Source: Lama guanicoe
Lineage: Eukaryota
Assembly (NCBI GenBank): GCA_013239625.1
Contig: MU053629.1
Span: 2,259,567 to 2,323,566 of the forward strand
Direction of reading: 5' to 3'
Length of the DNA stretch: 64,000 nucleotides
The position numbers were made by a program, and so were the translations under genes. The notes beneath the pieces were generated by a model, which saw only the letters and a program-made list of their open reading frames with translations, had not been told where the DNA came from and did no database searches. Shown here one piece after another: positions 2,387 through 58,600 of the stretch (the stretch's first letter is position 1; every line of letters starts with the position of its first letter).

Positions 2387-3101
2387 GTAAGCATTCTGTA
2401 GCTGTTTAGTTGACACTTATCTGAACCGCCCTCGCCAGTGACCCCTTATACCTTTATCCTGCTAGAGTTGGACAGCTTTTAAAAGACACCCAGCTTTTAA
2501 AGGACATAATGGTATAGAGACAAGGGAAGGCATTGTATTCACCTGGCGTTCAAGAATAATAAATGAATTAGGTGTTGATGGGTTGGGTAGAAATGGTGAG
2601 GATATCCTGTTTAAGGCTTTGTCTGCAGTTACTGAATTCTGGCTTCTACCTGTGGTCACCTTGAGAGCAGGTGAACAAACATTCATTGATGATGCTTTTT
2701 TGATAGTAGCTGTCTCTCAGAAGTGTAAACTCAAGAACATTTTCAGTTCTGTAAACTCCATTAGGCAATCTGGGTTTCACAAGGGCCTGTTCACATTGCA
2801 GTTGACCATAAGACTGACATTTCAGTGAATATCATCTTACAGCTTGTTCCTAACATTAGTTTCCAGTTTGCCAGGGTTTGGGGAACCCAGATCTTGGGGA
2901 GTAATTGATAGTCAGCATGCAAGTAATATCCTAGGAGCTCACCAGTTAATGCAGTTGCCATGCTTTTAAAAGTTCCTTTAACAAATCATATTCATTCAAG
3001 ATGATAGTTACCATCTGGGCAGTTCTAGAGGTGGCAGCTAAACTGGTTTGAAGATAGCTTCTTTTCTTAATACTATCCTGTTGTGTTTGTCCTTTGCCAA
3101 G

Positions 3102-5442
3102 GTTCTGTGACTCTCCCACCAGTGACTTGGAGATGCGCAACGGTCGGGGTAGAGGCAAACGCATGCGTCCCAACAGTAACACCCCTGTCAGTGAGACAGC
3201 CACAGCCTCTGACAGCAAAGGGACCAGCGGTAGCAGCAAAACCCGAGCCGGAGCCAATAGCAAAGGCCGTCGGGGCAGCCAGAATTCTTCAGAACATCGC
3301 CCACCTGCCAGTAGCACCTCCGAGGATGTCAAGGCCAGCCCTTCCTCAGCTAATAAGCGGAAAAACAAACCCCTTTCAGACATGGAGCTGAATTCTAGCT
3401 CAGAGGACTCCAAAGGGAGCAAGCGTGTCCGTACAAATTCCATGGGCTCAGCCACTGGCCCCCTCCCTGGGACCAAGGTGGAACCCACTGTTCTAGACAG
3501 AAATTGTCCCTCCCCAGTCCTGATTGACTGTCCCCACCCAAACTGCAACAAAAAGTACAAGCACATCAATGGGCTTAAGTACCACCAAGCTCATGCCCAC
3601 ACAGATGATGACAGCAAGCCAGAAGCAGATGGAGACAGTGAGTACGGAGAGGAGCCCGCCCTCCATGCAGACCTCGGGAGCTGCAATGGTGCATCTGTCT
3701 CGCAAAAAGGTTCCTTGTCCCCTGCCCGCTCAGCTACCCCCAAAGTTCGGCTCATAGAGCCCCATAGCCCTTCTCCTTCAAGCAAATTTAGCACAAAAGG
3801 CCTCTGTAAGAAAAAGTTGGGTGGGGAAGGGGACACAGATCTCGGGGCCCTATCCAATGATGGCTCCGATGATGGACCCTCCGTAATGGATGAAACGAGC
3901 AATGATGCCTTTGATTCTTTGGAAAGGAAATGTATGGAAAAAGAAAAATGTAAAAAACCCTCTAGTTTGAAACCTGAAAAGATTCCTTCCAAAAGTTTAA
4001 AGTCAGCCCGGCCCATTGCCCCTGCCATCCCCCCACAGCAAATTTACACCTTCCAGGCAGCCACCTTCACAGCCGCAAGCCCAGGCTCCTCCTCCGGCTT
4101 GACCACCACGGTGGTCCAGGCCATGCCCAGCAGCCCCCAGCTCAAGCCCATTCAGCCCAAGCCCACTGTGATGGGAGAACCTTTCACAGTCAACCCTGCC
4201 CTGACTCCAGCCAAGGACAAGAAAAAGAAGGACAAAAAAAAGAAAGAGTCTTCAAAGGAACTTGAAAGTCCTCTGACCCCTGGGAAGGTGTGTCGAGCAG
4301 AAGAAGGCAAAAGCCCCTTCAGGGAGTCATCGGGAGATGGGATGAAGATGGAGGGGCTCCTGAACGGCTCCTCAGACCCCCACCAGAGCCGACTGGCCAG
4401 CATCAAGGCCGAAGCTGACAAGATCTACAGCTTCACCGACAACGCCCCCAGCCCTTCAATCGGAGGCAGCAGCCGCCTGGAGAGCAGCACCCCTACCCAG
4501 CCCATGACGCCCTTGCACGTAGTGACCCAGAACGGAGCCGAAGCCAGCTCGGTGAAAACCAACAGCCCTGCCTACTCCGACATCTCCGACGCCGGGGAGG
4601 ACGGGGAGGGCAAAGTGGACAGTGTCAAATCAAAGGACCCTGAACAGCTGGTTAAGGAAGGGGCTAAGAAAACCCTTTTTCCCCCTCAGCCGCAGAGCAA
4701 GGACTCACCCTATTACCAAGGCTTTGAGAGTTACTACTCCCCAAGTTACGCACAGTCCAGCCCAGGGGCTCTGAACCCCAGCAGCCAGGCAGGAGTGGAG
4801 GGCCAGGCCCTGAAGGCAAAAAAGGATGAGGAGCCTGAGAGCATAGAGGGGAAAGTGAAGAACGATGTCTGTGAGGACAAGAAACCCGAGCTGAGCAGCT
4901 CCAGTCAGCAGCCGTCCGTCATCCAGCAGCGCCCCAACATGTACATGCAGTCCCTGTACTACAACCAGTATGCCTACGTGCCCCCCTATGGCTACGGTGA
5001 CCAGAGCTACCACACCCACCTCCTGAGCACTAACGCCGCCTACCGGCAGCAGTATGAGGAGCAGCAGAAGCGCCAGGGCTTGGAGCCGCAGCAGCGGGGC
5101 CTGGACAAGAAGGCCGAGCTGGGCCTCAAGGAACGGGAGGCGGCGCTCAAAGAGGAATGGAAGCAAAAGCCGTCAATTCCACCAACTCTCACCAAGGCCC
5201 CCAGCCTGACAGACCTGGTGAAGTCGGGACCCGGCAAGGCCAAGGAGCCAGGGGCGGACCCTGCCAAATCAGTCATCATTCCCAAGTTAGATGACTCTTC
5301 CAAACTCCCCAGCCAGGCCCCGGAAGGGCTTAAAGTGAAGCTGAGTGACGCCAGCCACCTAGGCAAGGAGACCTCCGAGGCTAAGACAGGTGCTGAGTGT
5401 GGCCGCCAGGCAGAGGTGGATCCAATACTCTGGTACCGACAG
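3102..5442 (+). CDS. ZNF609: ZNF609 large coding exon (2341 nt) with the single C2H2 zinc finger
   Basis: Lies in the 789-aa ORF 3094-5463; acceptor AG 3100-3101, donor CAG|gtaact at 5443; finger CPHPNCNKKYKHINGLKYHQAHAH at 3529-3600; basic tract KDKKKKDKKKKE. Confidence 0.95.
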
Positions 5443-6331
5443 GTAACTTCTGGAGGGAAATAGAAATACTGTGTGATAGTCTTTCTCTCTTTCTCACTAA
5501 TTAGAGCTGTCCTTATGTAGGGAACCAACAGAATACAGATTAGAGAGGAAATCTATAATTTCAGGGATTCTTCACCTTTGTAAATCATTTTAATGTTTTT
5601 TAAAAGCACTGTGACACCAGTAAAAGGTGTTATTCCCATTTGACAAGAGAGGCCCAGGTAGGTTAGCGTGGTTTGCCTGGGGTTACTTGAGACGTCACTA
5701 GGAGAGCCAGAGCTAGAACCCAGGCACCTTGATTCCTAGTCCAGTGTCTCTTCCGCTGTTTGGTTCCTAATGGAATGGAGTGGTGATCCCATTTTTTTAG
5801 AGTAGGCCGAGAGCACGCAGCTCAGACTGAGCTACTCTCAAGAAGGGTTTTACTGGCAGAGTAAGAACTGAGAACTTGGTCTTACGTTTTGCTCTGTTCA
5901 CGCAACTAAGAAAGACTCCTCTTCCCTCTTTGTGCCGCAGTTAGACCGCCCCCCTGAGCCGGGCAGCACCATCAGCTCTGTGCCCCGAGCTTGCTCTGAA
6001 GAAGTGACAGCCCACATACCCCTGGAGAGGGAGTGGCTTCTTGTAGTCAAGGAGCCGTTTCCCCAGAATGCTCATCTCCCAGCGAAGACCCACGGGTGGA
6101 TTTTCCTTTTCTTTCCCCACATCTTGTTTCCTTTGAAGGGGCTGGGGAGGCGGCAGGCATTTAAGCAGGAGGGACCAGAACTGGTTGTAAACGAAGATCA
6201 AATAGAGGCCAGGGTCCTGCTCCGGCCCAGGTGTCTAGTACTATCTGCTGTGGTATTTCTACTGGGACCCAGGGCTTGAAATCTCCCTCCCATCTGTGCA
6301 ACACTCAGAGCTCCCTCTGTGATTGCTGCAG

Positions 6332-13990: not shown

Positions 13991-15296
13991 GTTTTTAATG
14001 TCCCTGTTCTTAAATTTAGACTTAGTTTGCCTTTCACATCTCTCCCCTCTGCTACTCCAAACCTCCCACCTCCAAGATATTTCACCTTCTAAGTTGTTTT
14101 TTAACTGGAGTACAGATCTGGGGTACCATATTTCTTTTCTGCCAGTGGTGTTAGTAGCAAGTGTTTTCTTTTTGAAAGAGAAATCTTAGCTGAGTGCCTT
14201 CCTAACTCCAGCTGTATTAAAGAGGATCCATCAGCAGATGGCAGCAGACCCCCAGGCATGCTTCCGGTCCACTCAGCTGGCTTTATGGACAGTGACTAAG
14301 TTTTCCTTGTTCTTTATCCCTGTATTGTAGAGTCCTTGGGTATGAATTTAGTATCTGAAGCCTGAAGTGCCTACATTAATGTGGCCACTGTCGGCACTCA
14401 CGTGGATCTGTTGTAAATATCTCACCGTAATGACCACTTTCAGTCAGACTTTGTGCTGCCGCTAGGGTTTATCTGCCCGGTGGGAGGCAGGTCAAGCCCT
14501 TCCCATGTCAGTTGACTGTCTCCAGGCGCAGGCCGTGTACAATTCTGTGTGGGGTGGAGGTGCTGAGCGCAGTTCTCTTGATGAATACCAGTGGAGTCCA
14601 AGGTTAATGACTTGGCCCAGCGTGAAAACACAAGTAAGCTCCACACAGAACAATGAGAAAATGGGCCAGAGACTCAGAAAACCTAAGGACAGCCACAGCT
14701 CCACAGTAAGTGGTTTCAAAGCTGCAGGAGGTGGAAGAGCATGCCCAGGCACTTCATTTGGGAAAACAGAAGCAAAAGGAAAAAAGTACTAGTTAAACCC
14801 TTGAGAAAGTAAAAAAAACAGAACACAGGTGAGGGGAATTCCAGCCCCGCTTGGGGCCCCGAGACCTCAGCCACCAGGCTGGTGGTGCAGGGGGGTGGGA
14901 GCCGCACCTCAGGGCACTGGGCTCCGAAAGGAGGAAACTCTCTTCCTGGGGAACCCAGCTTCAGGCCCCAGCCTTCTACACAAAAGGAACCACTGAGAAG
15001 GGCTTGGGTCCTGTGCAAGTAGCCTCAGTTCTGGATGAAGCTGTGTGTACGTACCGGGCTCTAGAGGGCTCTGGCATTCTGCCCCGGCCTCCTAGCAACC
15101 CCACGTTTTGCGGTGTCATGTGGCCCCGGAGACCTCGGCCTGCCCCTTCATCTGTCCTGATGCGCTGCTGCTTTTTTCCTGAGAAGCATGTATCACACCC
15201 CTCGCTGGGCTGGGCTCTAGGTTCAAAACACAGTAGGAGAAGGAAGCTGGCCCTGGTACAGGAATAAAGAACAGACCAACCACAACTTTAAATCAG

Positions 15297-15302
15297 TTTA
15301 TT
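15297..15302 (-). terminator. Distal polyadenylation signal of OAZ2
   Basis: TTTATT on + (AATAAA on -), followed on - by GU/U-rich GTTGTGGTTGGTCTGTTCTTT. Confidence 0.75.
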
Positions 15303-16390
15303 GACACAGTAACACAACATACTTGCCTCCCTGACACCCCCACCCCCCTCACCCAATCTAGATCTCTCCCCCTTAGAACAAGCTGTTCAGTGAAACCAGA
15401 AAAGGGCAGGCCGCTTCTACACCCCAGTCCCAGCCCTAAGCCCTGTGAAGCAGGGGCTCAGGCACCTCTCAGAACCTGTTAGGGAGGGAGGGGGGCAGTC
15501 AGCACAGAGGCATCTAGTCCCTAAGAACAAATTCCCCCACAAGCCCCAGGCCCTGAGTTGCTATTCCTCTTCCTCTCTGCTCTTTGTGACCCTAGGAAGG
15601 AGACACCTTGGGGCCTGAGCCTGTAGCCAAGAGCAAGAGCTCGCGGCTGTCATCTGTGAATTGGAGTTTGGCTAGTGTTTTTTAAGGCCCAGGCACCCCA
15701 GAAAAAGCCCTGGTGGTGGGAGTGAACTTCAATGTCCCTATTTTAAATGCATTGAGAACATGAAACAGATTAAGCCAGCTTAACCAAATGCCAGAGTAAC
15801 ACTAAGCTGTAAAGAAGGAGGGGAGGGGTCAGACCTGCCTTCTCCAGGCCAGACACAAAAGCACGGAGAGAAGCCCAGGCGGAGTGTCAAGAAACAACTC
15901 AAGGACACGGCCCAGGGGCTGAAAAGCCTGTACGCAGGGCCCCCAGGGTGACAGGAAGCAAGAAGAGAAAATACACAAGTCTTAAAAACCAAAAGAGAAA
16001 GTCCAACACCAGGGGAACCTGAGCCTGACAGTGCTGTCCGCCAGCCCCCCAGGCCTTGCCCCTCGACCCAGACAGCCCCTCCCCCTCTAGGCAGTGTCCT
16101 CCCCTAGGCTAAATAGAGCACATCACACAGCGCAGTTTAAAAAGCTTCTAATGCCAGTTCATAAACATCTTCATTTACTATTGGTGATTACATGTGAATA
16201 ATATGTTTATACTGTTCTTTATGGAAAACAATTTCAACAAGTCAACTCTGAGAACACAACAGGCAACCCTCACCCTGAGCCCCTCAGCGTCCTTCCCTAG
16301 ACGGCAAGAAGCCCCCTCCTCTGTCCCAGGGCTGCCTAACTTCCCCTCTTCCCCCACACTGGCTCTTGGGCAAAGCATCCTCTGTGACCA

Positions 16391-16521
16391 TTAGTCCTCA
16401 TCGGACAAGTTCCGGTCCAGGGGGTAAACCATGAACATCACATCTGGCCGAGAGGGGACACAGGGATGGCCTGGCTGCACAATCTCAAAGCCCAAGAAGC
16501 TGAAGGTCTTCAGGAGTGGCG
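16391..16521 (-). CDS. OAZ2: OAZ2 last coding exon (A)PLLKTFSFLGFEIVQPGHPCVPSRPDVMFMVYPLDRNLSDED-stop
   Basis: Acceptor ctcttctcttctgcag on -; antizyme C-terminal signature F.FLGFE; TAA at 16393-16391. Confidence 0.95.
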
Positions 16522-16759: not shown

Positions 16760-16845
16760 CTCTGTCTTCCCGGCCCTTCCTGAAGCAGATGAAGACATAG
16801 TTCACTTTCATCTTCTCTTCAGCAAACTCTAGCAGTGCTAACAAT
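16760..16845 (-). CDS. OAZ2: OAZ2 coding exon (G)LLALLEFAEEKMKVNYVFICFRKGREDR
   Basis: In ORF 16578-16844; ctgcag acceptor, gtgagg donor; antizyme LLEFAEE motif. Confidence 0.95.
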
Positions 16846-17631: not shown

Positions 17632-17807
17632 CCTTCTTTGCTCCCATCAGCTAATAATCCATCTGGGATTTCTATAAACAGGCTCTGGCTGGACAGGACT
17701 GCATCCCAGGAAGAGACCTTCACCTCGGTGACCTCATACTGGAAGTGGACGATGTGAGGTTTTCCATCGTTCACAGGGAGGTCCTGGGTCACAGTGAGCT
17801 TCTCGTC
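17632..17807 (-). CDS. OAZ2: OAZ2 coding exon DEKLTVTQDLPVNDGKPH...GLLADGSKE(G)
   Basis: In ORF 17628-17840; CAG acceptor, gtaagg donor; phase-consistent (176 nt). Confidence 0.95.
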
Positions 17808-19050: not shown

Positions 19051-19208
19051 CTTATATATTAGAGCTGAGAGAGAAGGATCCCTGCCGCCCCCTCGCCCAC
19101 CGGGGATCTTGGACAGTGGGTGAGGGGCATCAGGAGCACCACAGAGGCCCCGGAACAAGGTGCCTGCAGCGCTGGAGCTGGGGACAGTTACTCAAAGGCA
19201 AAATACTA
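19051..19208 (-). CDS. OAZ2: OAZ2 exon 2: end of ORF1 (...VPGPLWCS-UGA) and, in the +1 frame, start of ORF2 (DAPHPLSKIPGGRGGGRDPSLSALIYK)
   Basis: Acceptor tctctcttgcag, donor AAG|gtaagg; the two frames overlap at TCC-TGA-T. Confidence 0.95.
19077..19150 (-). promoter_or_regulatory. Antizyme +1 programmed ribosomal frameshift cassette (5' stimulator, UCC-UGA shift site 19135-19130, 3' pseudoknot)
   Basis: On -: GGGCCTCTGTGGTGC-TCC-TGA-TG-CCCCTCACCCACTG...GATCCC-CGGTGGGCGAGGGG...GGGATC. Stem 1 pairs CCCCUC.CCCAC with GUGGG.GAGGGG; stem 2 pairs GAUCCC (19108-19103) with GGGAUC (19082-19077). Confidence 0.95.
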
Positions 19209-22200
19209 CTGCAAGAGAGAGAAAGTGAGACAGTAAACACAAAGACTGGAAGATTTAACTCAGCATCCCAGCCGACCCCTGCCCTGGCGCTCCCTAAGCA
19301 AGTGCTCCCTCGACAACTGCCTCAGTGTAGCCCAGCCCCAGCGCCTTTCCTTACGCCAACAGTGTGTCAACAACCTGCGTGGCAGAATCACAAAGCCTCC
19401 ATGGTCACTTCAGGCTGGAGAGGCATGTGGGCCTCAGGAAGTCACTCTGGCCTGGGTACTGTGTCCCTGAGGGACTCCCAAGGCCACTTCCAATGATGGC
19501 TTCCTCCCTGATCTGAACAATGGAACTGGACAAGAAATTACTCACCTAAATCCCTCTAGGGTCAAAAACAGAATTAAATCCAGGGATTTACCTCCCCAAA
19601 AAGAGGAGGTGCACTACAGTACGGAGTATTACGGTACATGAGTTTGTCCCTTCTGTGCCACGAAATGCTGTCTTCTTGCCCGTCTTTGTTGGAATCTGGC
19701 CTGGGCGTGGACATTCAGGTGATACTGACCTGGTCAGAATGGACACTGAACTTCCTGTATGTTGCGGGCGTGGGAAGGAGGTATGCATGCTTACTGAGTA
19801 AGGAAGCCAATTATCAGATGGACCACAATTACAAGACTCCTAAAAGAGCGCCTGTCACCTCCAGGTGTGTCCCTTTCTGACCACCATGATTTTCAGGTGG
19901 ACCCACCAAGGGCTCCAGATCTGCTCCACTGCTTTTGAATCTAATTTACGGGCTCTTTAGGCTGAGATGTAGCTTATTCAACAGGCCCAGGGCAAGTGAA
20001 ACAAGGAAAGAGGAAAACTGTGCATGTGACACCATGACTCAGCAGCAGGCCTGGCCCTTGGCCCCCGCACACCAGCCTCAGGGCAACTGGAACACCAGGG
20101 GTAACATTTATGGGAGGGTGTTGCAGTGAGGTGCTGGAGCCAGCTCACCCAATATTGCACACCTCTTCCCAACTATGCATTCAGTGACGGCATGTTGGTA
20201 GCCATGAATCAGCCAGTGGTGTACTTAAACCATAGAAATCAGCCCATGCTATAAATCAAGGCCGTTCCCCCCTGAAAACCATCTGTAAAATGACGTGAGG
20301 CACCCTTCTGCTCACTGTCCTGCTTTAAGTGGTATGCCAGACTGAGGCTCAGAGTGACAGAAATGAACTCACACGTAACGTGGCAACGGTACGATAACCA
20401 GAGGTGCAGCCCACTGAGACAGACCCTCAGTACTAGGAGACCCATGCCAGCATTCCAGCTGAGACAGGAGGTCCAGACCCACCCCTGCTCTGGCTCGGTT
20501 CCTCCATTCTCTCAGGGATTTCAGTTGGTGCCTAAAATTACACTTGGAAATTTCACCGGGAGATCAAGTTCCCAGGACAGTGTCAGTGGGCCCAGAGCCG
20601 CATCAAGGGATGCATCACCTCCAGCCTCCTCTGGAAAGCCTCAGGGCATCCTCACCTCCCCTACTCTTGGCCTCACCACCAGCCCCTAGGAGAAGGGGCA
20701 TGACAGAGGACTGTGCTACTGTTTTCAAGAACAGGACTTATTTTCTACTGGAGACAATGAGCTGTTTAAAAAAAAAAAAGCAAAAAACCTTCCAGTGTGT
20801 TAAGGGATAGAATCATAGAATGTCCAGGCCAGAGAAGAAGGGCGGAGGTTTCCCCAGGCAAAGGTGCACACATGCCCCTAGTGAGACGGTTCCCTCCCCC
20901 GCTCCCTAGTGACCACCTCTCGGCCTCTGCTGAGGTTCATGCAGAAACACCAGGAAGGCCAGGCCATTGGAGACAGCTGGCTGGCTTGGGCAGTGGAGCT
21001 GCCTAAGGACTGGGCGAACCTCTGGGGTAGACAAGATGAGATACAGCCTTGGACACCAGGAGGACTGCATGGGTTCACACAACCGGATCACCAAGGCCCC
21101 TGCAGTCCTAGAATTCTGGTGCTAACTCACTTCCAGAGAAATTATCCCTCAGTAGTCTTTAGCAGGGAGAGCTATATTCAACCCCTGACCTGCATTCCAA
21201 CCACCGTCTTGATTCTGAACTAATTTTTCTTGAAAATAGCAGAAGTAATGGGGCCAATCCAATGAAAAGATCAGAATAAGATGGGTTTTCTTTTTTTAAG
21301 ATCCAGAATCCCGTGTCTTCCTAGAAGTAATCCCTAGGGTTACCCTGTGTCCAGCACTAATCTATGAGCGTGTGATATTTCTGGTATCACGATCTCACTT
21401 CTTTTCAAATAAAATGTAAGAAGTCTGTTCCATGGTAAAATACCATTTACTTCCCCACTCACACACAAGGATCCAGGGAACTCTTTCCTCCTCCACAAAG
21501 TCTGCACAGAAGGCAAGTGTGAGTGAGTAACAGGTAGAAGGGTGTTCCAGGTCCCCACCCTGGGATCCAGTTCCAGTTCCGTAAGAGAAGCAGCTGGGGT
21601 TTGGGATAAGCTTAGTACACAGATCACAATCAATAGTTATTTTCATCATCCATCATAATGGAACTGTTTTTAGTTACTTGCTGTGTCAATGGCAAACCGC
21701 TCTCTTTCAAAAAAACAAAACAAAACAAAAAAACAACCTGACTGTCATTTCTGGCATGAAAAGGGAAGGGATATGAGTACATATATGGTGGGTAAAGAAA
21801 TCAAGGGGCATAAAATCAGTCAGCAGTGGCCTTTCCTTCTTGTACTGACTTAAGTGTTCAAAATGGTATTGTGGCAAAGCACGCCACCAACCTCAGTAGG
21901 AATAGTGAATCCTGGAGGAACATGAGCACAAGACAAAGTGGCTTTTAAACACAAGTCTTCCTGTCACAAGATCCATGCCAGGTTAGGTTTCACATTCAGT
22001 TCGGTCATGTTGCTACTGGCTCCTGTGCCCAGCTTCTTCCATTCATTCCTTCCTCGCATCCTGCTCACTCCACTGGGGGGCAGGCATACTTTAATCCCTA
22101 CCACCAAAGGATGATTTAAGCAGCTCAACCTAGAGACTGAAAAGATCAGGCTGATTAAGGAGAATCAAACGTATTAGACTGAACTCAAACATCCAGCTGA

Positions 22201-27732: not shown

Positions 27733-28314
27733 NNNNNNNNNNNNNNNNNNNNNNNNNNNNNNNNNNNNNNNNNNNNNNNNNNNNNNNNNNNNNNNNNNNN
27801 NNNNNNNNNNNNNNNNNNNNNNNNNNNNNNNNNNNNNNNNNNNNNNNNNNNNNNNNNNNNNNNNNNNNNNNNNNNNNNNNNNNNNNNNNNNNNNNNNNNN
27901 NNNNNNNNNNNNNNNNNNNNNNNNNNNNNNNNNNNNNNNNNNNNNNNNNNNNNNNNNNNNNNNNNNNNNNNNNNNNNNNNNNNNNNNNNNNNNNNNNNNN
28001 NNNNNNNNNNNNNNNNNNNNNNNNNNNNNNNNNNNNNNNNNNNNNNNNNNNNNNNNNNNNNNNNNNNNNNNNNNNNNNNNNNNNNNNNNNNNNNNNNNNN
28101 NNNNNNNNNNNNNNNNNNNNNNNNNNNNNNNNNNNNNNNNNNNNNNNNNNNNNNNNNNNNNNNNNNNNNNNNNNNNNNNNNNNNNNNNNNNNNNNNNNNN
28201 NNNNNNNNNNNNNNNNNNNNNNNNNNNNNNNNNNNNNNNNNNNNNNNNNNNNNNNNNNNNNNNNNNNNNNNNNNNNNNNNNNNNNNNNNNNNNNNNNNNN
28301 NNNNNNNNNNNNNN
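27733..28314. other. Assembly gap (582 N) at the GC-rich start of OAZ2 intron 1
   Basis: Run of N; flanks are very G/C-rich. Confidence 1.
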
Positions 28315-28680
28315 GGGGAGCCTGGGCCGGGCCGTTACCTGTCCTGGGTGTTTATCATCCTCGGCGGCTCTGCTCAGGGTGGGAGGAGGCGGCGCAGGGA
28401 GTGGGTAGGTAGATGAGTGGGTGGGTGTGGGGTCGCGCGCGCGCGGGGCCGATCTCTGCGGGCTAAGTCCCTGTCAGGCCGCGGGCCCAGAGCCCTCCTC
28501 CTGCCTCAGCGAGCGCCTGCCTCATGGGGGTGGGGGCGGGGGGGAGGGGTGGTGGCGGTGGCGGTGGAGCAGCCCGAATGATGCGTTGTATTTAAAGTAA
28601 AGTTTACTGAGCGTTGACCTGACAGTCGTCGTCCCCAGCCCTTGTTTGCCTGATTGGGCTGAGTAGGGCTGTGTCATTTG
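28315..28680 (-). promoter_or_regulatory. OAZ2 CpG island and promoter
   Basis: CpG-dense (cgcgcgcgcg); GC boxes ~28530-28550; TATA-like TTTAAATA on - at 28596-28589; CCAAT on - at 28657-28653. Confidence 0.7.
28339..28358 (-). CDS. OAZ2: OAZ2 exon 1 coding part, MINTQD(S)
   Basis: On -: GCCGAGG-ATG ATA AAC ACC CAG GAC AG|gtaacg; matches the antizyme 2 N-terminus and splices in phase to exon 2. Confidence 0.93.
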
Positions 28681-30344: not shown

Positions 30345-30481
30345 TTATTATTGTATCATTTATTTTATTTTGGGGGGAGGTAATTAGGTTTATCTATTTT
30401 TAGAGGAGGTACTGGGGATTGAACCCAGGACCTCATGTATGCTAAGCATGCGCTCTACCACCTTAAGCTCTATCTACACCC
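30345..30481 (-). mobile_element. tRNA-Ala-derived SINE (camelid vic-1-like)
   Basis: On -: ...GGTAGAGCGCATGCTTAGCATACATGAGGTCCTGGGTTCAATCCCCAGTACCTCC, then AAACCTAATTACCTCCCCCC and an A-rich tail, shared with the other copies. Confidence 0.8.
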
Positions 30482-36978: not shown

Positions 36979-37063
36979 TTTTATTATGGAGGTACTGGGG
37001 ATTGAACCTAGGACCTCATGCATGCTAAGCACGTGCTCTACCACTGAGCTATATCCCACCCCC
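36979..37063 (-). mobile_element. tRNA-Ala-derived SINE (short form) with target-site duplication
   Basis: On -: GGGATATAGCTCAGTGGTAGAGCACGTGCTTAGCATGCATGAGGTCCTAGGTTCAATCCCCAGTACCTCCA; 16-bp TSD tgaaatcac(c/t)atttta at 36963-36978 and 37064-37079. Confidence 0.88.
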
Positions 37064-40324: not shown

Positions 40325-40456
40325 GGGGGAGGATATAGCTCAGCGGTAGATCACATGCTTAGCATGCATGAGGTCATGGGTTCGATCCCCAGTACCTCCA
40401 TTAAATTTCTAATAATAATAATAAGTAAACCTAATTACCTACCCCCCCCCAAAATA
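40325..40456 (+). mobile_element. tRNA-Ala-derived SINE (vic-1-like)
   Basis: GGATATAGCTCAGCGGTAGATCACATGCTTAGCATGCATGAGGTCATGGGTTCGATCCCCAGTACCTCCA with A and B boxes, then the family tail AAACCTAATTACCT. Confidence 0.85.
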
Positions 40457-50400: not shown

Positions 50401-53014
50401 ATCAATAAATGGCTGAGCCAGTGTAAGAGGGACGAAAGGGCTGCAGCGAAAAGACCCTTGGGTTGAAGTGGAAAAAGAAGTCCAGACTGGGAGGACCCTG
50501 GGGTGCGAGGGGACGTGGAGAACCCCTTCTGCCAGGCCACCATCTTCATGTGCCAGGCAGACCCCAGTGTGCCCCTGCCACCCACTCCCTCTGCAGATCA
50601 GAGGGTCCGGCAAGATGGCCTCATGCCAAGACACAGCAGGACTGAACCATCTCCCAGCCCCTTCCTGCAGGTCTGGTCCCTGCAGTCACACGCCAACGCT
50701 CCAGCTCAGGCTGAGCTCCCGGCAAAGGGCATGAGGTCGGCGTGTGCATGTTGGGGTACAGAAAGAATGAGTTTTCACCCTACTTTGTCCATTAGCTGCT
50801 GCCTTCTCTCTAAGTCACCTCCTTACCCCCAGGCACAGAAAAAAGCAGTGTTCCTTGTCCCCTGGGTTCAGAATAATCCCGAGTATCAACAGTATCCACT
50901 TCCCACATTCAGGCACCTACAGCCTCCACCTCTGGGGCTAGAGGAGCAGGAGGCAGGGAGGGGCTCTTAGAAGATAAAGAAAACATGCCACTACTCAGGA
51001 CAGAACTAGTTACCACCTGATCCAATCGCCTGTCATTAGCCTGTCTCCCCGCGAAAAAGCCAGTATCCTTTGAGATGCCCTCTTCTCCTTCCCAGGGAGG
51101 CCAGAAGACAGGAACTCAGGCACAATGAGGCCTCTAGCCTCAGAGAGGACCCGGTGCGGGGAGTGGGGGACCTAGGAAATCATGATATTAAATAATAACC
51201 AAGATACTCAGCATTTCTACAGCACTCCCTCTATGCTAACATGCTACCAACAGCCCCATAAAGTAGCCATGATCATCATCATTCCACAAAGAAAGCGAGA
51301 CAGAGAAGTCAAGTCACTTGCCCAAGGTCACACGGGTGTTGAAGAGCCAGGATTTGGACCGAGGCAGATGGACTGGGCGTGGACAACCACGGGGCGTGGG
51401 TAGCGGGAAAAAGCCGGAAAGGAAGACAAGAGGAGGGCACACAGCCCTGCGGCGTGGAGCTGAGGGACAGGTACCAATGCACCACTCCCAGCCAGCTGGG
51501 GGCCGCCCCACAAAGGGCAGAGGCGGCAGCTCTCCTGAATAATCTGACACCCTGACTGTCCCTGGCTCCCAACCTCTGCCTCATCATTGTCACGGCCCAG
51601 CATCTCAGAGCAGATGGGGTAGGACCTCCCCATCCGATCTGATCTTGCCCTCTCGTTTTACAGATAAGGATACACATGAGGCTCAGAGGTGAAGTTACCT
51701 GCCGAAGACCAGGAGGCTAACTGGTGACAAAGCTGGGATCAGAGGCAAGGAGTCCAGCAACACCTCGCAGGGCCTCTGGGGCTAAACTCCCAGCTGGGCT
51801 GGGAGCATCATCTGCCTTCTACACTCCGCGAGGTCAGAGAGGACCAGGACTGTCTCCACTCACCGTTCTGTGCCCACTGGAGAACGGGCTTGCGGTAAAT
51901 ACCCAAACACTGCCTCTTGAGAGGAAGATCCTTCCCAGCTTCCTACCCCCGATCAATGTTTCCGTTGTATGCGGTGCGCCACTGGGGACGAGTGCCAAGC
52001 TGACCCATGCATCTGCCTGGGTACCACCCAAGTTGCCAAGGCAGGAAGGACTTCACTGCAGGGGGAGCAGTTCGAGAGGGTAGCAGCCAGGAATCTGAAC
52101 TTTCCACCTGGAACTGGGCGATCCCAGGTCACTAAGCCCTTTAGAGGACCTGGGATGGACGCATACTTGGCCCTCCCTCAGGTAGAGCCCCCGATTCCTC
52201 CCACTTCAGCTTCCAGTTTCTGCCAACTCTCCCTCCTGGCTTTTCATGTCCTTTAATTCCTCATCCCTTTCCACTGTCCTGGCCAGGTGACCTGTCCCCT
52301 CCCTCTCAACAGCACAGCATACCCTGGCCCGGCCACCAGGCTGCTCTTCCTGAGCCTCAGCCCTTGGTCACTTGGCTGATGAGAGGCTGAGGTGGACTCA
52401 CCACTCTCCCTGGCCCTCCTGTGCTGCTGGCGGTGCCCTGTCACTGTGTCACAGAGGCACGGGCCAGTGTCTGACCACCTGCTCATGTCACAGTGGACAG
52501 CACCCACTCTCCATGAACACAAGAGCAGACACTCACCGGGCACCCCAGATGTTCCAGGCACAATCCCAGCACTTTACACATCTTAGCAACAACTTGAGGC
52601 AGATAATACTATTCTTATTTTTCCAGATGAGTTAAAAAAAAATTCCACACAGAAATCTTCCAGAGCATTCTAAAGTTCATAAAGACAGGAGGAGGCAGCG
52701 GCAGGTGGCCTGGCTCCGGGGACCACACTCTGGTTGGGGTCTGAATCACAGCCCTGTCACCACAGGCAGAAAGGGGCACAGCCTGCCCGTGGGTGTTTGG
52801 GGGCCGTGCAGCCACGCCGAGTCTTTCCACACTCAGCCTCCTGCCAAGAATCCTCGATGGGGTCTCACGCCTTATCCTCTCCTTCTTCTGTCAGATCCCA
52901 AACCCTAACAGTACTGTCCTGGAAGTTCCCCGGCAGCCCTGGGGAGATGGGTGGCCCTGGCCAGCTTAGAGCCTTCATTGTCCCCTTTCCTGCTTCTCCT
53001 CCAGACGGGCTTAC

Positions 53015-53160
53015 CTGAGTGTGGAGGGCGGCGGCGGCAGTGGCAGCTGGGTAGGTGAACGCAGCGTGTGAGATGGCTGGGGTCAGCTCTGTGGTGTAGA
53101 GAGGGTAGGGGGCCCAGGCCTCTGGGGATGCGGGGATCAGAGCAGCTCCCATGAGGTCAT
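53015..53160 (-). CDS. RBPMS2: RBPMS2 coding exon (Y)[21 protein letters not shown]...AAAALHTQ
   Basis: In ORF 52865-53215; ttttacag acceptor, gtaagc donor. Confidence 0.93.
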
Positions 53161-53669
53161 CTGTAAAAGAGACGACAGCCCCCAGCGTCAGACCACTGGT
53201 GCCTCCCTCTGCCACTCCATTCCAAACAGAGAAGGGGACCCAGCACTATGGTTGAGCACAAATTCCCTACTCAGGCCAGGCTCCCCTCAAGGACCCCAAG
53301 ACCGGGCAAGAAGCCATGTTAACTTGGCCAGGCTTGGTGAACATCCTGTCTGCTTCAAGAAGCCCACAAAAGGCCTCCACTCATCTCAAACAACAGAGAT
53401 CAGAGAAGGCTTCTGGGAAGCTGGGCAATGCTGACAGCTCAGGAGCTCAGTCTGAGGTCCAGCAAAGGCTGCAGGGGAGGAAGGAAGTGTGGGCCCCGCA
53501 GGGATGAGGGATGATGGATGCAAGAAGCCTCCTGGAAAAGGGGCAGGCAGGCAGGACTGATTCCCTCAGTGAGAGCCCCAGCGTCACCCTCTATGTGCAA
53601 CTCCACCCACTAGGGCCCACAGCTCAGCCAGCTCAAGGGCCGCAGGTGGCTGCCCTAAGTGCCACTCAC

Positions 53670-53820
53670 AGGGGTCCCGTGCGATGAAGTGTGCTCCTAG
53701 GGCGGGGTGAGCGTTGGTGGGATTTGGTGTAGCCATTAGCTTGTTCTTGGCCATCTTGGTGTTGGCTTTGGCAAACTCTAGCCTCAGGGTCTGCGGGTTC
53801 TCAGGATCAAAGCGAATACC
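53670..53820 (-). CDS. RBPMS2: RBPMS2 coding exon [22 protein letters not shown]...GAHFIARDP
   Basis: Acceptor ccttctcacatag, donor gtgagt; end of the RRM; 151 nt, phase-consistent. Confidence 0.93.
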
Positions 53821-54142
53821 CTATGTGAGAAGGAAAGGAAGAGAAAGACTTCACTCTGCGGGACCCAGACTATCCACTGCAGTGGGTACCAAGGGGCCTC
53901 AGAAATAATCCAGCCTGGACGCCCCACCCACATGAGGGCCAAGAGAGGACACGCTGCTCGGGCCTTGCGAGTAGTGGCGTTTGGCACAGGTGGGGCTGCC
54001 AGAGACTCTGCCCTGGGATGGCTGGGGAAGGTACAGCCGTGGGCCCTTCCCATGGGCGTGGAGTGGGGGAAGGTTTGCAGAAGACACCCACTCCCTAGAA
54101 GTCTGTGGATCAGAGAAGGGCCTGTTCTCTCCACCTACTCAC

Positions 54143-54205
54143 GTTCAGTGCATTCTTGGCTGCTTCTGCTCCTGCCCGGCTGTCAAAGATCACAAAACCA
54201 ACAGG
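54143..54205 (-). CDS. RBPMS2: RBPMS2 coding exon [21 protein letters not shown] (RNP1)
   Basis: Acceptor ctttttcctactag, donor gtgagt; 63 nt. Confidence 0.93.
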
Positions 54206-54923
54206 CTAGTAGGAAAAAGAGAGAATACCCTTGCATCTCTCCCAACATCCGTCTCCCCCTCAAACACACAAACAACAAAGTACAAAAAATATGTAATTCT
54301 TGTCCATGTCCTCCCTATGTTCAGCTGGAACAGAAGAAGGTTCTCGGGCACCAAAACTCTCCCACCCAGGTACCACGCTGTGGGAAATGATGCCCCAAAA
54401 GCTTCCTCCCACTGTATTAAACTTCACCCTTTCAGTAAGAAAAAAATTTTTTAAACGCATGCAGAGAATTATGAGTAGATTTCAGTGTCTTCTCCAGCAA
54501 GAACAAGGACACCAATGTATCAAGGACATGGGAGGGCTGCAGGTCAATCAAGGGGCAACAGGTTCAAAACTTCTCCAACTTCAATTTGCCAAAGTTCAGT
54601 CCAGACCCGAAATGGCCCCTGAAGGCTCTAGGCCCAGGACTTCTGGTGTCAGAAGCCAGAGCACAGTCACCACCTCTATGATCTGCAGCCTTGGGGCCAG
54701 GCTGTGGTTTCTCAAGAGCCAGAGAATGAGGACCAGGAGCTGACTGGTAAGGAGAAGGGACCAATGGAGGCCACCCTTTCGTCAGCCCAGGACAGAGTCG
54801 GGGTGACAGGGCACAGGTCTCAGCTGCCAGATGCCTCAAGATTGAGGAAAAGACAACAGGCTGGGTTCCAAGCCCAGCAGTCGACCTGGGCTGGCAGGAA
54901 GGAAAACCTTGGAGAGAAATTAC

Positions 54924-54962
54924 CTGTCTTGATGTGAGCTTGATCAGGGACCCTTCATACCC
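54924..54962 (-). CDS. RBPMS2: RBPMS2 39-nt coding exon GYEGSLIKLTSRQ
   Basis: Acceptor ctctctttgcag, donor gtaatt; matches the start of ORF 54564-54968. Confidence 0.92.
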
Positions 54963-55542
54963 CTGCAAAGAGAGGTGGTCATTAACAGGGAAGGTCGGAA
55001 ACCTTTGTTGTGCTCCCCTGGCCCCCCGACCCCTGACAGCAGCCCCACCTTTCCCCAGCGCTCGCCTGTATCACACTCACTCTTCCCCTCACGAAGGCGA
55101 CCCTCCCTGACCTCCACTGCTGCTGAACGCCGTGGCCCTCACGTCCCACATCACGCGGCCCAGCACACGGGTGAGCATCACGCGGTAGCATCCATCCTCT
55201 CACGCGTAAACTCCCCTTTGCTCCATTAGCCTGTCATCTGGAAGCAGACCTTACCTTTTTAAGCTTTCTTATCTGCAAATTGGAAATGCTACACTGAATC
55301 TCGAAGATTTCTTACAGGGCAAAGCCTACTGAGAGTCTCCTTTACAGATGAGAAAACAGAGGCTCAGAAGGGTTTTAAGCAACTGATAGAAAGCAGTGTG
55401 TGAATCAGCAGCACCAGGACAGAGAGCCAGGTCTGCGATCAGTTTCTGATAGTTTCCTGCTACCCAATCCAGGTCTGAGATTTACCGCGGACACTTCTCC
55501 CCCATCCTAGGCTCTGCGCTCGGTGGCTGGGTCCAGACTCAC

Positions 55543-55620
55543 CTTGAACGGCCTGAAGAGCAGGTAGAGTTCTCTGGGTTTAATGTCCACAGGAAGGCCA
55601 CTGACGAACAGCGTCCGGAC
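55543..55620 (-). CDS. RBPMS2: RBPMS2 coding exon [26 protein letters not shown] (RNP2, start of the RRM)
   Basis: Acceptor tgtccccag, donor gtgagt; in ORF 55507-55767. The first exon with the ATG was not found in the window. Confidence 0.94.
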
Positions 55621-58600
55621 CTGGGGACACAGACGACAGTGGTCAGAGCCAGGCCGACAGAAGAACAAGGATGACAGCTCTCCCTTCAAGAAGGAACTGG
55701 AATCCTTCCAGAGTTTAAGGAAGAATTCAGGATTTCCCGGGACTCCTTTGGAGGCCGAAGCGAACAAGCACCCAGAGTCTCACAGCATGTTACTTTGCAG
55801 AGCCCTTTCTGCACACTCTCCTTTCTCTGGCTCATCCTGCAGGTGTCACAAGAAGCCCAGGTGAACTCGCTGAGCATCTCTGTGCAGACTCTCTGCTGCC
55901 GAACAGAACAACTAAGTGCACAGGCCAAGGACCCCTCTGAGCCCTGAAGAAAGCCATGGTGTCTAACCTCCAAGAAATGCACAAACAGGAACACTGTTTT
56001 TCAGAAGATGCCCACGGACCCCTGGTGGAGAGGCTCTGTGTGGTCTGGGGGAGAGGCAAAGCTGTGAACTCGTGCCCGGGAGTGAATTCGGAGGGCCCAG
56101 CACCGTCACGTCCAGCTCCTCCTGCTTCCTGCACTAGATGCAGGCTCTTCAGTGGCCGGGAATGCACTGTATTCCTGCCTCTGTGCCTAGCTCTTAGCAT
56201 GGTGCTGGTACCGTTTACTGAATATGGGACCCGGGGAAGGAATCAGAGATGGAACAATGATGCTAGCTTTTGAACAATGAGTAGGATCTCATCAGCTCCA
56301 AGAGAGGCACAGAGAAGATGCTGTAAGTTATGAGCCTGGCCCTCAACATGGTTACAAGTTGGTGGTGAAACCAGGTCTCGACAAGACATCAGGTGTCCAG
56401 CCTGTGACTCCGGCCAAGCCTGACCTCCTGAACTGTGGATGAGGTCCAAGGTCCAGGAGAGGGCTGGCAGCAACACCTCCCTAATTCTCCACTGTTGGTT
56501 AAATGCTGCTGGCACCCAATGCTAACTAGTGAGGCCAGATCAGCCAATAATTATAATGGGGGAGAGAGGATTCTCCATAGTTCAGATCCATTAAAAATAC
56601 ATCTTGAAACTGTGCTTTCCTGAGCAAGGAAAAATCGGAAAGAGTAGAGCCCCATACACTGAACTCCTGTTTCAAGTCACATCTCCTACCGCTAAAGCCA
56701 AACTTGGGTCTTATCAACTCATCACTGTTGGTTTAACAAGTTCACGGGCCGCAGCCCACTCATCCCATGGCCATTCCTGAAAGCATTTAGATGCCCTTCA
56801 GTGGGCCACATCCCTCTCCAGAGGCAGCAAAGAACTTCCTCCAAACTCTAGTGATGGCGGGCCGAGTGGGCCCCAGGTAATAGCCTTTTTGGGGATAATA
56901 GCTTAAATCAGGGACCCCGGGGCAGTCAGGTAAAGTTACACCTGACAGACAGACACACACACCAATACACATGTCAACAACAGAGCCAGAGACGGCAAAG
57001 GAAACCAGCCCCGGAGCCACCCATAACCAGTGTCGCCACCCCGACCCACAAAGGAATGGCTCCCAGCCTGCAGCTGGTAGCAAACAGGCAAGGACGGCTT
57101 CTTCCCTCATGTGAGTTTTTGCCAAGAAGCAAACCCAGCAGAACCCCTTGCCAGTTAGGGTGCCTCTCCCCGCTTTGGTGATGCCTTTCCTCGCCAGACA
57201 CGCCTCTGCTCCCAGCAGCTCTGTGTCCCTACACGCACAGCTCTCAAGTGCTACCCTGTTTTAGAGCATCAGGGAGAAACCGGGGAGCCCAGGCTTCAGG
57301 AGCTCTGGAGCTCCTGGAATCCAGACAAACACCCAGCTGTCCTTGGAAGGAAGGCCTTTACTTTATATGTAAGCCCCTAGACAGAAGTGACCCGCTCAGG
57401 TTACACAGCTTGTTTTTTTAAAGGCAGCAGACTTAGGACTCAAAACCCAGGTCTCCCTCCTGACTACTCACCTGGACTGGTAGAGATGGCACTTGCTTCT
57501 GGGTGCCAGGACTTGGGTGCCCGGCCCACCAGAGAGGATGGAGTACCAGCCAGTCCGCGCCCTGCTGGACGGGCCTGGATCTGCGCTCCTCCCCCTCCCC
57601 GGGCTGGTGGGACGTGCTCTGGGTCAAAGACGTGGAGCCAGCGCTGCCCCACAGAAACCTCTCCTCGGTTCTCCCCAGTGGCCACCCATTTCACGCAGGC
57701 TAATTTTAAACCCTTCCTCAGATGGCTCCTTTTTGGCCAGACCTCCCCAGAGGCCCCCTTAAATAGAAAGTTCTCAGCACAAAGTTTCCTGCTTAGGGCA
57801 GTGAGCACAGGGACTCTTTCCCTCATTCCCAGCTCAGACCCTTGTTTCCAGCCTTCTCTCTGGGCGAGATGGCGCTTTTCCTCCGCTTTCCACCTTTCAG
57901 GTTGTAAAGGTGCAATACAGGTCTCATCTTACCCCTGGCCACCCCCCAGGAAACAAGCGGACTTCAGTGCAGTTACGGGTTAGGTGGTGGGTCTGTAGCG
58001 CCAGCTCACAGACCCTTGGCTGGGTGGCTAAGTCACAGGGAGTCTGACCTGAAAGCTCTCCTTGCTTCTTACGTGACCCTGGACACCCCAGCAGGTGACA
58101 TGCCCTCTGCCTATCCCCTTGTGCAGTCAGGGAAACAGAGGCCCAGAAAGGGCTCATGCAGCTTGCTTCAGCAAGGAGCAGAGCTGGATGAGCCCCAAGA
58201 ACGCTGGCTCGGCTGTCTGTGCTGTCCACCTGGCTGTGGGGACAGAAGGAGCTGCAGCTGGGCAGCATCGTCGGCCCCGTGGATGGGGACCATGATGCCG
58301 CACATCTCTTCAGTAGCCAGTTCCTTCCCTGGGTGCCTGTTTAGGATGACAGCAGAGCTGGAGGGACGGTAAGCACGAGCTCAGCAGGCTGGCCAGCCAC
58401 AGGCTGAGAGGACAAGAAGCTCGAGTCGTCCCCCCTACCCCAACCCTGCCAGCCCATCTACTCCAGGCTCCCAACAAGCACCCCCACAGGCCTGCTGCAA
58501 GGCAGCTGCTCACGCTGCCCCTCCCCCCTCCCCTTCCACCTTCCTTTAAAAGGGCACCCATCCTTCAGGTCCCTCTATTTCATCTCCCCCTCTTCCTTCC

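Follow-up and report, generated by a model that had tools for sequence, protein, structure and literature searches.

Antizyme recoding is the textbook example of metabolite sensing by a cellular gene through a ribosomal frameshift. The antizyme 2 protein binds and inhibits ODC, and it also limits the uptake of polyamines. A similar logic is found in bacterial prfB (release factor 2), where an autoregulatory +1 shift occurs at an in-frame UGA and where, as in antizyme, slow decoding is sensed. In prfB, however, the sensor responds to the level of RF2 and not to polyamines, an internal Shine-Dalgarno sequence is found instead of a pseudoknot, and the two systems have no homology. The primary papers on antizyme frameshifting are said to be those of Matsufuji et al. 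1995 and Ivanov et al. 1998.

The events on antizyme mRNAs are outlined in a part of Ivanov and Atkins (2007; PMC1874602): initiation is at the AUG of ORF1, and once UCC has been decoded and the A site contains UGA, some ribosomes shift to the +1 frame and read GAU next. The same text describes the antizyme pseudoknot as unusually close to the shift site, presents the pseudoknot and 5′ modules as stimulators of the shift, and states that the pseudoknot 3′ of the ORF1 stop is nearly the same in all vertebrate antizyme 2 homologues. Mammalian OAZ1, the experimental prototype (solved structures 4zgy, 5bwa, 1zo0, 4zgz), has the UCC UGA U site, a class I pseudoknot, the ODC_AZ fold and the proximal 5′ block in common with the locus described here, whereas its ORF1 is given as 68 codons with two AUGs (PMC1874602), compared to 32 codons and one AUG. 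Mammalian OAZ2 (OAZ2_HUMAN, P0080, and curated NP_ entries from horse, rat, pika and others) has the same 189-aa product, the same 32-codon ORF1, the same WCS/DAPHP trans-frame junction (the slash marks the junction) and the same tandem acceptor at exon 2; a 3′ UTR of ~1.1 kb and an RBPMS2 neighbour are also common to both.

A 64-kb stretch of guanaco DNA, hereafter referred to as the window, was analyzed. A locus on its minus strand is almost certainly the mammalian OAZ2 orthologue, with the known antizyme +1 frameshift anatomy. Its shift site, pseudoknot and gene match the pattern described for vertebrate antizyme 2, and the mechanism is already known.

Gene model and reading frames of the OAZ2 locus

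The following pieces of the gene were delineated (window coordinates):

28339..28358, minus strand: coding part of exon 1, ATG plus 17 nt, encoding MINTQD and 2 nt of a Ser codon; donor gtaacg
19051..19208, minus strand: exon 2, 158 nt, containing the end of ORF1, the shift site, the pseudoknot and the start of ORF2
17632..17807, minus strand: exon 3, 176 nt, encoding the N-terminal part of the antizyme fold
16760..16845, minus strand: exon 4, 86 nt
16391..16521, minus strand: coding part of exon 5, 131 nt including the terminal TAA
15297..16390, minus strand: probable 3′ UTR, ~1.09 kb, with AATAAA at 15302-15297

A six-frame search of the window finds MINTQD a single time; its ATG lies at 28358 on the minus strand and has an A at −3. 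All five exons have GT-AG borders, with exon 2 following an acceptor that ends in ttgcag and ending in AAG before the donor gtaagg. The coding pieces add up to 20+158+176+86+131 = 571 nt, which leaves a remainder of 1 upon division by three. The same total of 571 nt over five spliced exons had been given in a preliminary description of the window, and it was reproduced here.

Translation in frame 0 from the ATG yields a 32-codon ORF1, MINTQDSSILPLSNCPQLQRCRHLVPGPLWCS, which is followed by TGA at 19132-19130; a TCC at 19135-19133 directly precedes the stop. Both the length of ORF1 and the position of its stop had been proposed earlier and were obtained again. The antizyme domain was found, as had also been claimed, in the +1 frame starting from GAU (19131), with no AUG nearby: this frame extends upstream of the shift point through 20 stop-free codons, none of them ATG, and its first Met, at index 117 of 178, falls within the C-terminal domain. 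When one base is dropped at the ORF1 stop, a 570-nt sequence results that encodes 189 aa and a single terminal stop, in agreement with what the preliminary description had predicted for skipping U19132. Reading TCCT as a single four-base step in exon 2 gives 52 residues without a stop (...GPLWCSDAPHPLSK...), and the terminal TAA is the only stop in ORF2.

The poly(A) site is probable and was placed by the AATAAA at 15302-15297. The length of the resulting 3′ UTR agrees with the '~1100 nt' stated for antizyme 2 mRNA in a passage of Ivanov and Atkins (PMC1874602). Twenty-three of 24 listed public sequencing runs share part of 15290-16521, a region made up of the last exon and the 3′ UTR and lying outside the shift site, and 17 of the 24 contain at least half of the words from the last exon and 3′ UTR. 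Six runs among those that match 15290-16521 are recorded as RNA.

An upstream ATG (cccccATGagg) opens a short frame ending in TAG at about 28526-28464 of the minus strand, some 170 nt before the OAZ2 start. Intron 1 contains an assembly gap of 582 N at 27733-28314, beginning 25 nt past the exon 1 donor. The gap adjoins the GC-rich promoter and exon 1 region, of a kind where draft assemblies often break.

Identity and orthology of the product

Pieces of the product were searched separately. In Pfam, the exon 4 piece alone matched PF02100 (ODC_AZ) at 25.6 bits (cut-off 24.2, E 1.2e-05), and the exon 5 piece alone scored 19.1 bits (E 0.0012), under the cut-off; no Pfam match was obtained with the exon 3 piece alone or with the part of exon 2 that belongs to ORF2. 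The exon 3 piece did match four solved antizyme 1 chains with E values from 1.3e-08 to 1.5e-05, the best being 4zgy_B (E 1.3e-08), followed by 5bwa_B, 1zo0_A and 4zgz_B. By the Pfam ODC_AZ and antizyme 1 structure matches, the predicted ORF2 product is an antizyme.

When exon 3 was compared with a large protein collection, 78 proteins at E <= 0.001 were found among 102 candidates. Almost every named protein of the 78 is an antizyme 2, and mammals, birds, reptiles and amphibians are represented; identity of exon 3 to proteins named antizyme 2 is 96-100%. The whole 189-aa product is identical at 184 of 189 positions (five differences) to P0080, the cluster member named OAZ2_HUMAN, and shows 5 to 18 differences from 12 full-length 189-aa orthologues. 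A tblastn search that used bat and hamster gene models in which RBPMS2 and OAZ2 are fused located exons like those of RBPMS2, an RRM protein, upstream on the same strand (52985-55623, minus), the best pieces being 86-100% identical. With RBPMS2 exons upstream of OAZ2, the neighbourhood is therefore conserved. Judged by sequence identity together with the RBPMS2 neighbour, the locus is orthologous to OAZ2, and the identity given to it in the preliminary description stands on both counts.

RBPMS2 and OAZ2 are wrongly fused in several public gene models (P0013, P0014 and P0017).

The guanaco assembly (2.05 Gb) that contains the window was searched with the Rfam antizyme frameshift element RF00381. 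At least two matches were obtained, the window OAZ2 and an OAZ1-like locus; the number is a lower bound, the best candidates having been scored. The OAZ1-like paralogue (contig C2899, locus L003, about 1297-2204 on the plus strand) has an 82.7-bit Antizyme_FSE match. Its ORF1 ends in ...PRWCS with the stop at UCC UGA U, and its +1 frame runs through ...DVPHPPLEIPGGRG... into an antizyme-1-like exon; a Pfam search of this exon gave no match. The OAZ2 product and the paralogue are 45% identical over exon 3. The two loci differ in the exon border after the pseudoknot and in the linker between stem 1 and stem 2, which is 3 nt shorter in the window OAZ2. Among the best candidates scored in the 2.05-Gb assembly, no processed OAZ2 copy that keeps RF00381 was seen.

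The shift site and its predicted RNA stimulators

Exon 2 carries the following elements:

19133..19154, minus strand: 22-nt block TCCGGGGCCTCTGTGGTGCTCC, directly 5′ of UGA
19130..19135, minus strand: shift site UCC UGA; U19132 is the skipped base and GAU (19131-19129) the first +1 codon
19077..19132, minus strand: Rfam RF00381 Antizyme_FSE, a class I pseudoknot; the match starts on UGA
19115..19127, minus strand: stem 1, 5′ arm, CCCCUC, bulged A at 19121, CCCACU
19089..19101, minus strand: stem 1, 3′ arm, GGUGGG, C, GAGGGG
19103..19108, minus strand: stem 2, 5′ arm, GAUCCC, inside loop 1
19077..19082, minus strand: stem 2, 3′ arm, GGGAUC

The sequence UCC UGA U is the same in three other antizyme loci, two from metagenome contigs (L001 and L002) and L003 from the guanaco genome itself. 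A comparison with the Rfam frameshift element had been suggested by the preliminary description as a check, and it bore the proposal out: in an Rfam scan of the 64-kb window RF00381 matched over its full length (model positions 1-59 of 59), scoring 70.9 bits (gathering score 40; E 3.1e-14). No RF00381 match was found in 14 control genomes. Given this E value and the absence of matches in the controls, the Antizyme_FSE match is therefore not due to chance.

The Rfam model encodes the nested stem 1 only, and the full pseudoknot was mapped by hand with stem 2 checked separately. The structure begins 2 nt past UGA. Stem 1 is made of 12 pairs, one of them U-G, with 19127-19122 and 19120-19115 pairing with 19101-19096 and 19094-19089. 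In stem 2, all six pairs form in each of four aligned antizyme sequences, namely the window, the same-genome paralogue and the two metagenome contigs. In the window, 18 of 18 pairs of the pseudoknot are standard. Across the four-locus alignment, 95.8% of 72 cells pair; shifting the 3′ partners by 1-3 columns lowers this share to 44-61%.

Covariation among the four loci is uninformative either way, nearly all pairs (16 of 18) being constant; shuffles scored at least as high as the real alignment in 359 of 500 cases. A single compensatory change was seen, from C-G to U-A in the outermost stem 1 pair. Taken by itself, the nested fold exceeds shuffled sequences in stability by only a modest margin (−32.4 kcal/mol, z −2.03), with 9 of 200 shuffles folding equally well.

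The 22-nt block at 19154-19133 is identical in the two independent metagenome antizyme contigs and has two differences in the OAZ1-like paralogue of the same genome. It likely corresponds to proximal 5′ stimulator modules A and B, as these are described in a part of Ivanov and Atkins (PMC1874602), where distal 5′ module C is called the less conserved module.

Evidence bearing on the extra base

A break of frame in a draft assembly could also be an assembly or sequencing indel, or the mark of a decaying pseudogene, with no recoding involved. The assembly has 55,231 contigs and the 582-N gap in intron 1 of this very gene, and four residues of the product are absent from the 12 full-length orthologues. 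The break, however, falls exactly on a conserved UCC UGA U that coincides with a full-length match to the frameshift element, the five exons have GT-AG borders, and ORF2 has no other stop. Identity of 184/189 to the human-type protein is atypical of a pseudogene, and the presence of introns argues against a processed copy.

Comparison with other genomes bears on the base itself. A total of 97 database proteins were fetched, 61 of which span the shift site. The trans-frame junction GPLWCS/DAPHP, the same as in the window, is present in 40 of the 61. Another 16 read the ORF2 frame straight through (GLCGAP/DAPHP), and five have other contexts; the straight-through models also require the extra base. 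A pattern that allowed zero to two bases at the position of the U found exactly one base, T, in both metagenome contigs (2/2). The same extra base is thus present in two of two independent contigs and in the paralogue from the guanaco genome, which speaks against an indel. OAZ2 ESTs with a complete coding sequence are mentioned for mouse, rat, zebra finch and fathead minnow in a section of Bekaert et al. (2008; PMC2375905).

On this evidence the extra base appears not to be peculiar to the assembly of the window, the case against an indel being one of conservation. We consider an indel or a pseudogene very improbable as the source of the frame break.

The preliminary description had further warned that naive annotation would stumble at this gene, and the databases bear this out: 28 of the 78 matched proteins are labelled 'LOW QUALITY PROTEIN', and the 16 straight-through models among the 61 site-spanning proteins were noted above.

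Routes to the second reading frame

The frameshifting of guanaco OAZ2 and its response to polyamines would follow from the established work on antizymes 1 and 2 that is summarized in parts of Ivanov and Atkins (PMC1874602). On the established antizyme mechanism, ribosomes would start at the ORF1 AUG and reach a point where the P site holds peptidyl-tRNA-Ser on UCC while UGA, a slowly decoded codon, occupies the A site. A proportion of them would then skip the U, read GAU (Asp) and continue in ORF2 to produce the 189-aa protein. This fraction would be raised by free polyamines, and raised further by the 3′ pseudoknot and the 5′ modules. The product would bind ODC monomers, inactivate them, promote their ubiquitin-independent degradation and curb polyamine uptake, so that ODC inactivation and lowered uptake would close a negative feedback loop. 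Binding of ODC by the window product, and its inhibition or destabilisation, are predicted from membership in the antizyme family.

Translation of ORF2 might instead come about with no frameshift at all. Alternative splicing, RNA editing and transcriptional slippage are conceivable routes, as is non-AUG initiation in the +1 frame. Splicing deserves mention for the exon 2 acceptor, which is a tandem NAGNAG (cag/TAG, the slash marking the exon border; 19206-19211, minus strand). The tandem acceptor accounts for human and marmoset records of a 188-aa 'isoform 2', in which one Ser is missing (MINTQDSILP... in place of MINTQDSSILP...). Use of the downstream AG would remove one Ser codon, however, and a change of length by 3 nt leaves a total of 568 nt, which is still 1 mod 3; the frameshift would therefore still be required. 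Non-AUG initiation could draw on the 20 codons over which the +1 frame is open upstream, which include a TTG seven codons before GAU, but the ORF1 peptide is conserved in all 12 full-length orthologues, as fits a start at the ORF1 AUG. For transcriptional slippage, CCUGAU offers no homopolymer run. Against all such routes stands the protein sequencing of antizyme 1, which, as stated in a passage of Ivanov and Atkins (PMC1874602), showed the UCC-GAU junction. We regard access to ORF2 without a frameshift as extremely improbable, and the +1 shift at UCC UGA is retained below.

Residues of the window product absent from 12 orthologues

Four residues of the window product, R20, L24, Q162 and R183, occur in none of the 12 full-length OAZ2 orthologues. 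The corresponding substitutions are C20R, I24L, R162Q and Q183R, and they are the one unusual feature of the gene. Positions 162 and 183 are encoded in exon 5; the other two lie in ORF1, where the replaced residues are invariant in 12 of 12 full-length orthologues:

19171-19169, minus strand: codon CGC of C20R, 39 nt upstream of the skipped U
19159-19157, minus strand: codon CTT of I24L, 27 nt upstream of the skipped U

All four residues may be either lineage-specific changes or sequence errors of the draft assembly. If the bases are correct, OAZ2 of the window, with 97.4% identity to the human-type sequence, would be somewhat divergent for a mammal; human-mouse identity of OAZ2 is given as 99.5% in a part of Ivanov and Atkins (PMC1874602).

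The codons of C20R and I24L are located in the region of the distal 5′ stimulator, farther upstream than the invariant 22-nt block. The upstream reading of the +1 frame, VTVPSSSAAGTLFRGLCGAP, is the same in the window and in the pig model P0008, which fits both changes being silent in that frame. If each arose by a single base change, C20R and I24L appear to be silent in the +1 frame.

If genuine, the two substitutions might retune the set-point or the polyamine sensitivity of OAZ2 frameshifting, a suggestion that we consider unlikely to be correct. A stronger version would have them weaken or abolish regulated frameshifting in the lineage, with the 32-residue ORF1 peptide as the main product. 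In favour of such an outcome, R20 and L24 replace residues invariant in 12/12 orthologues and fall within the region of the distal 5′ stimulator. The shift site, the pseudoknot and the proximal 22-nt block are all intact, however, the distal module C is described as less conserved in the text cited for it above (PMC1874602), and ORF2 is under evident constraint. We assign a loss of this kind a negligible probability, and the reading kept here is that of a gene with the known frameshift anatomy.

Other features of the window

An open frame of 801 codons at 3058-5463 on the plus strand, convergent with OAZ2, is rich in Ser, Lys and Pro and contains one C2H2-like zinc-finger motif. We take it to resemble the large exon of ZNF609. 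Pfam searches of this large ORF (3058-5460) and of one RBPMS2-like exon gave no match.

Three tRNA-like matches to Rfam were found, at 36987-37058 (minus strand), 40328-40400 (plus strand) and 30404-30477 (minus strand), with scores of 48.8, 40.3 and 39.7 bits, respectively. Several of their stem pairs are non-standard, and two of them are named tRNA-Ala(AGC) by ARAGORN. These two Ala-like copies, which hardly differ in sequence, most likely represent heads of tRNA-derived SINEs rather than tRNA genes.

Implications

The practical value of these results lies in the gene model: the correct OAZ2 model of the window is a five-exon join with a +1 slip at 19132, encoding 189 aa. If C20R and I24L do alter frameshifting, they would provide a natural variant for probing the poorly understood distal module. 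Where the recoding is recognised, annotation will not mistake this essential polyamine regulator for a broken gene.
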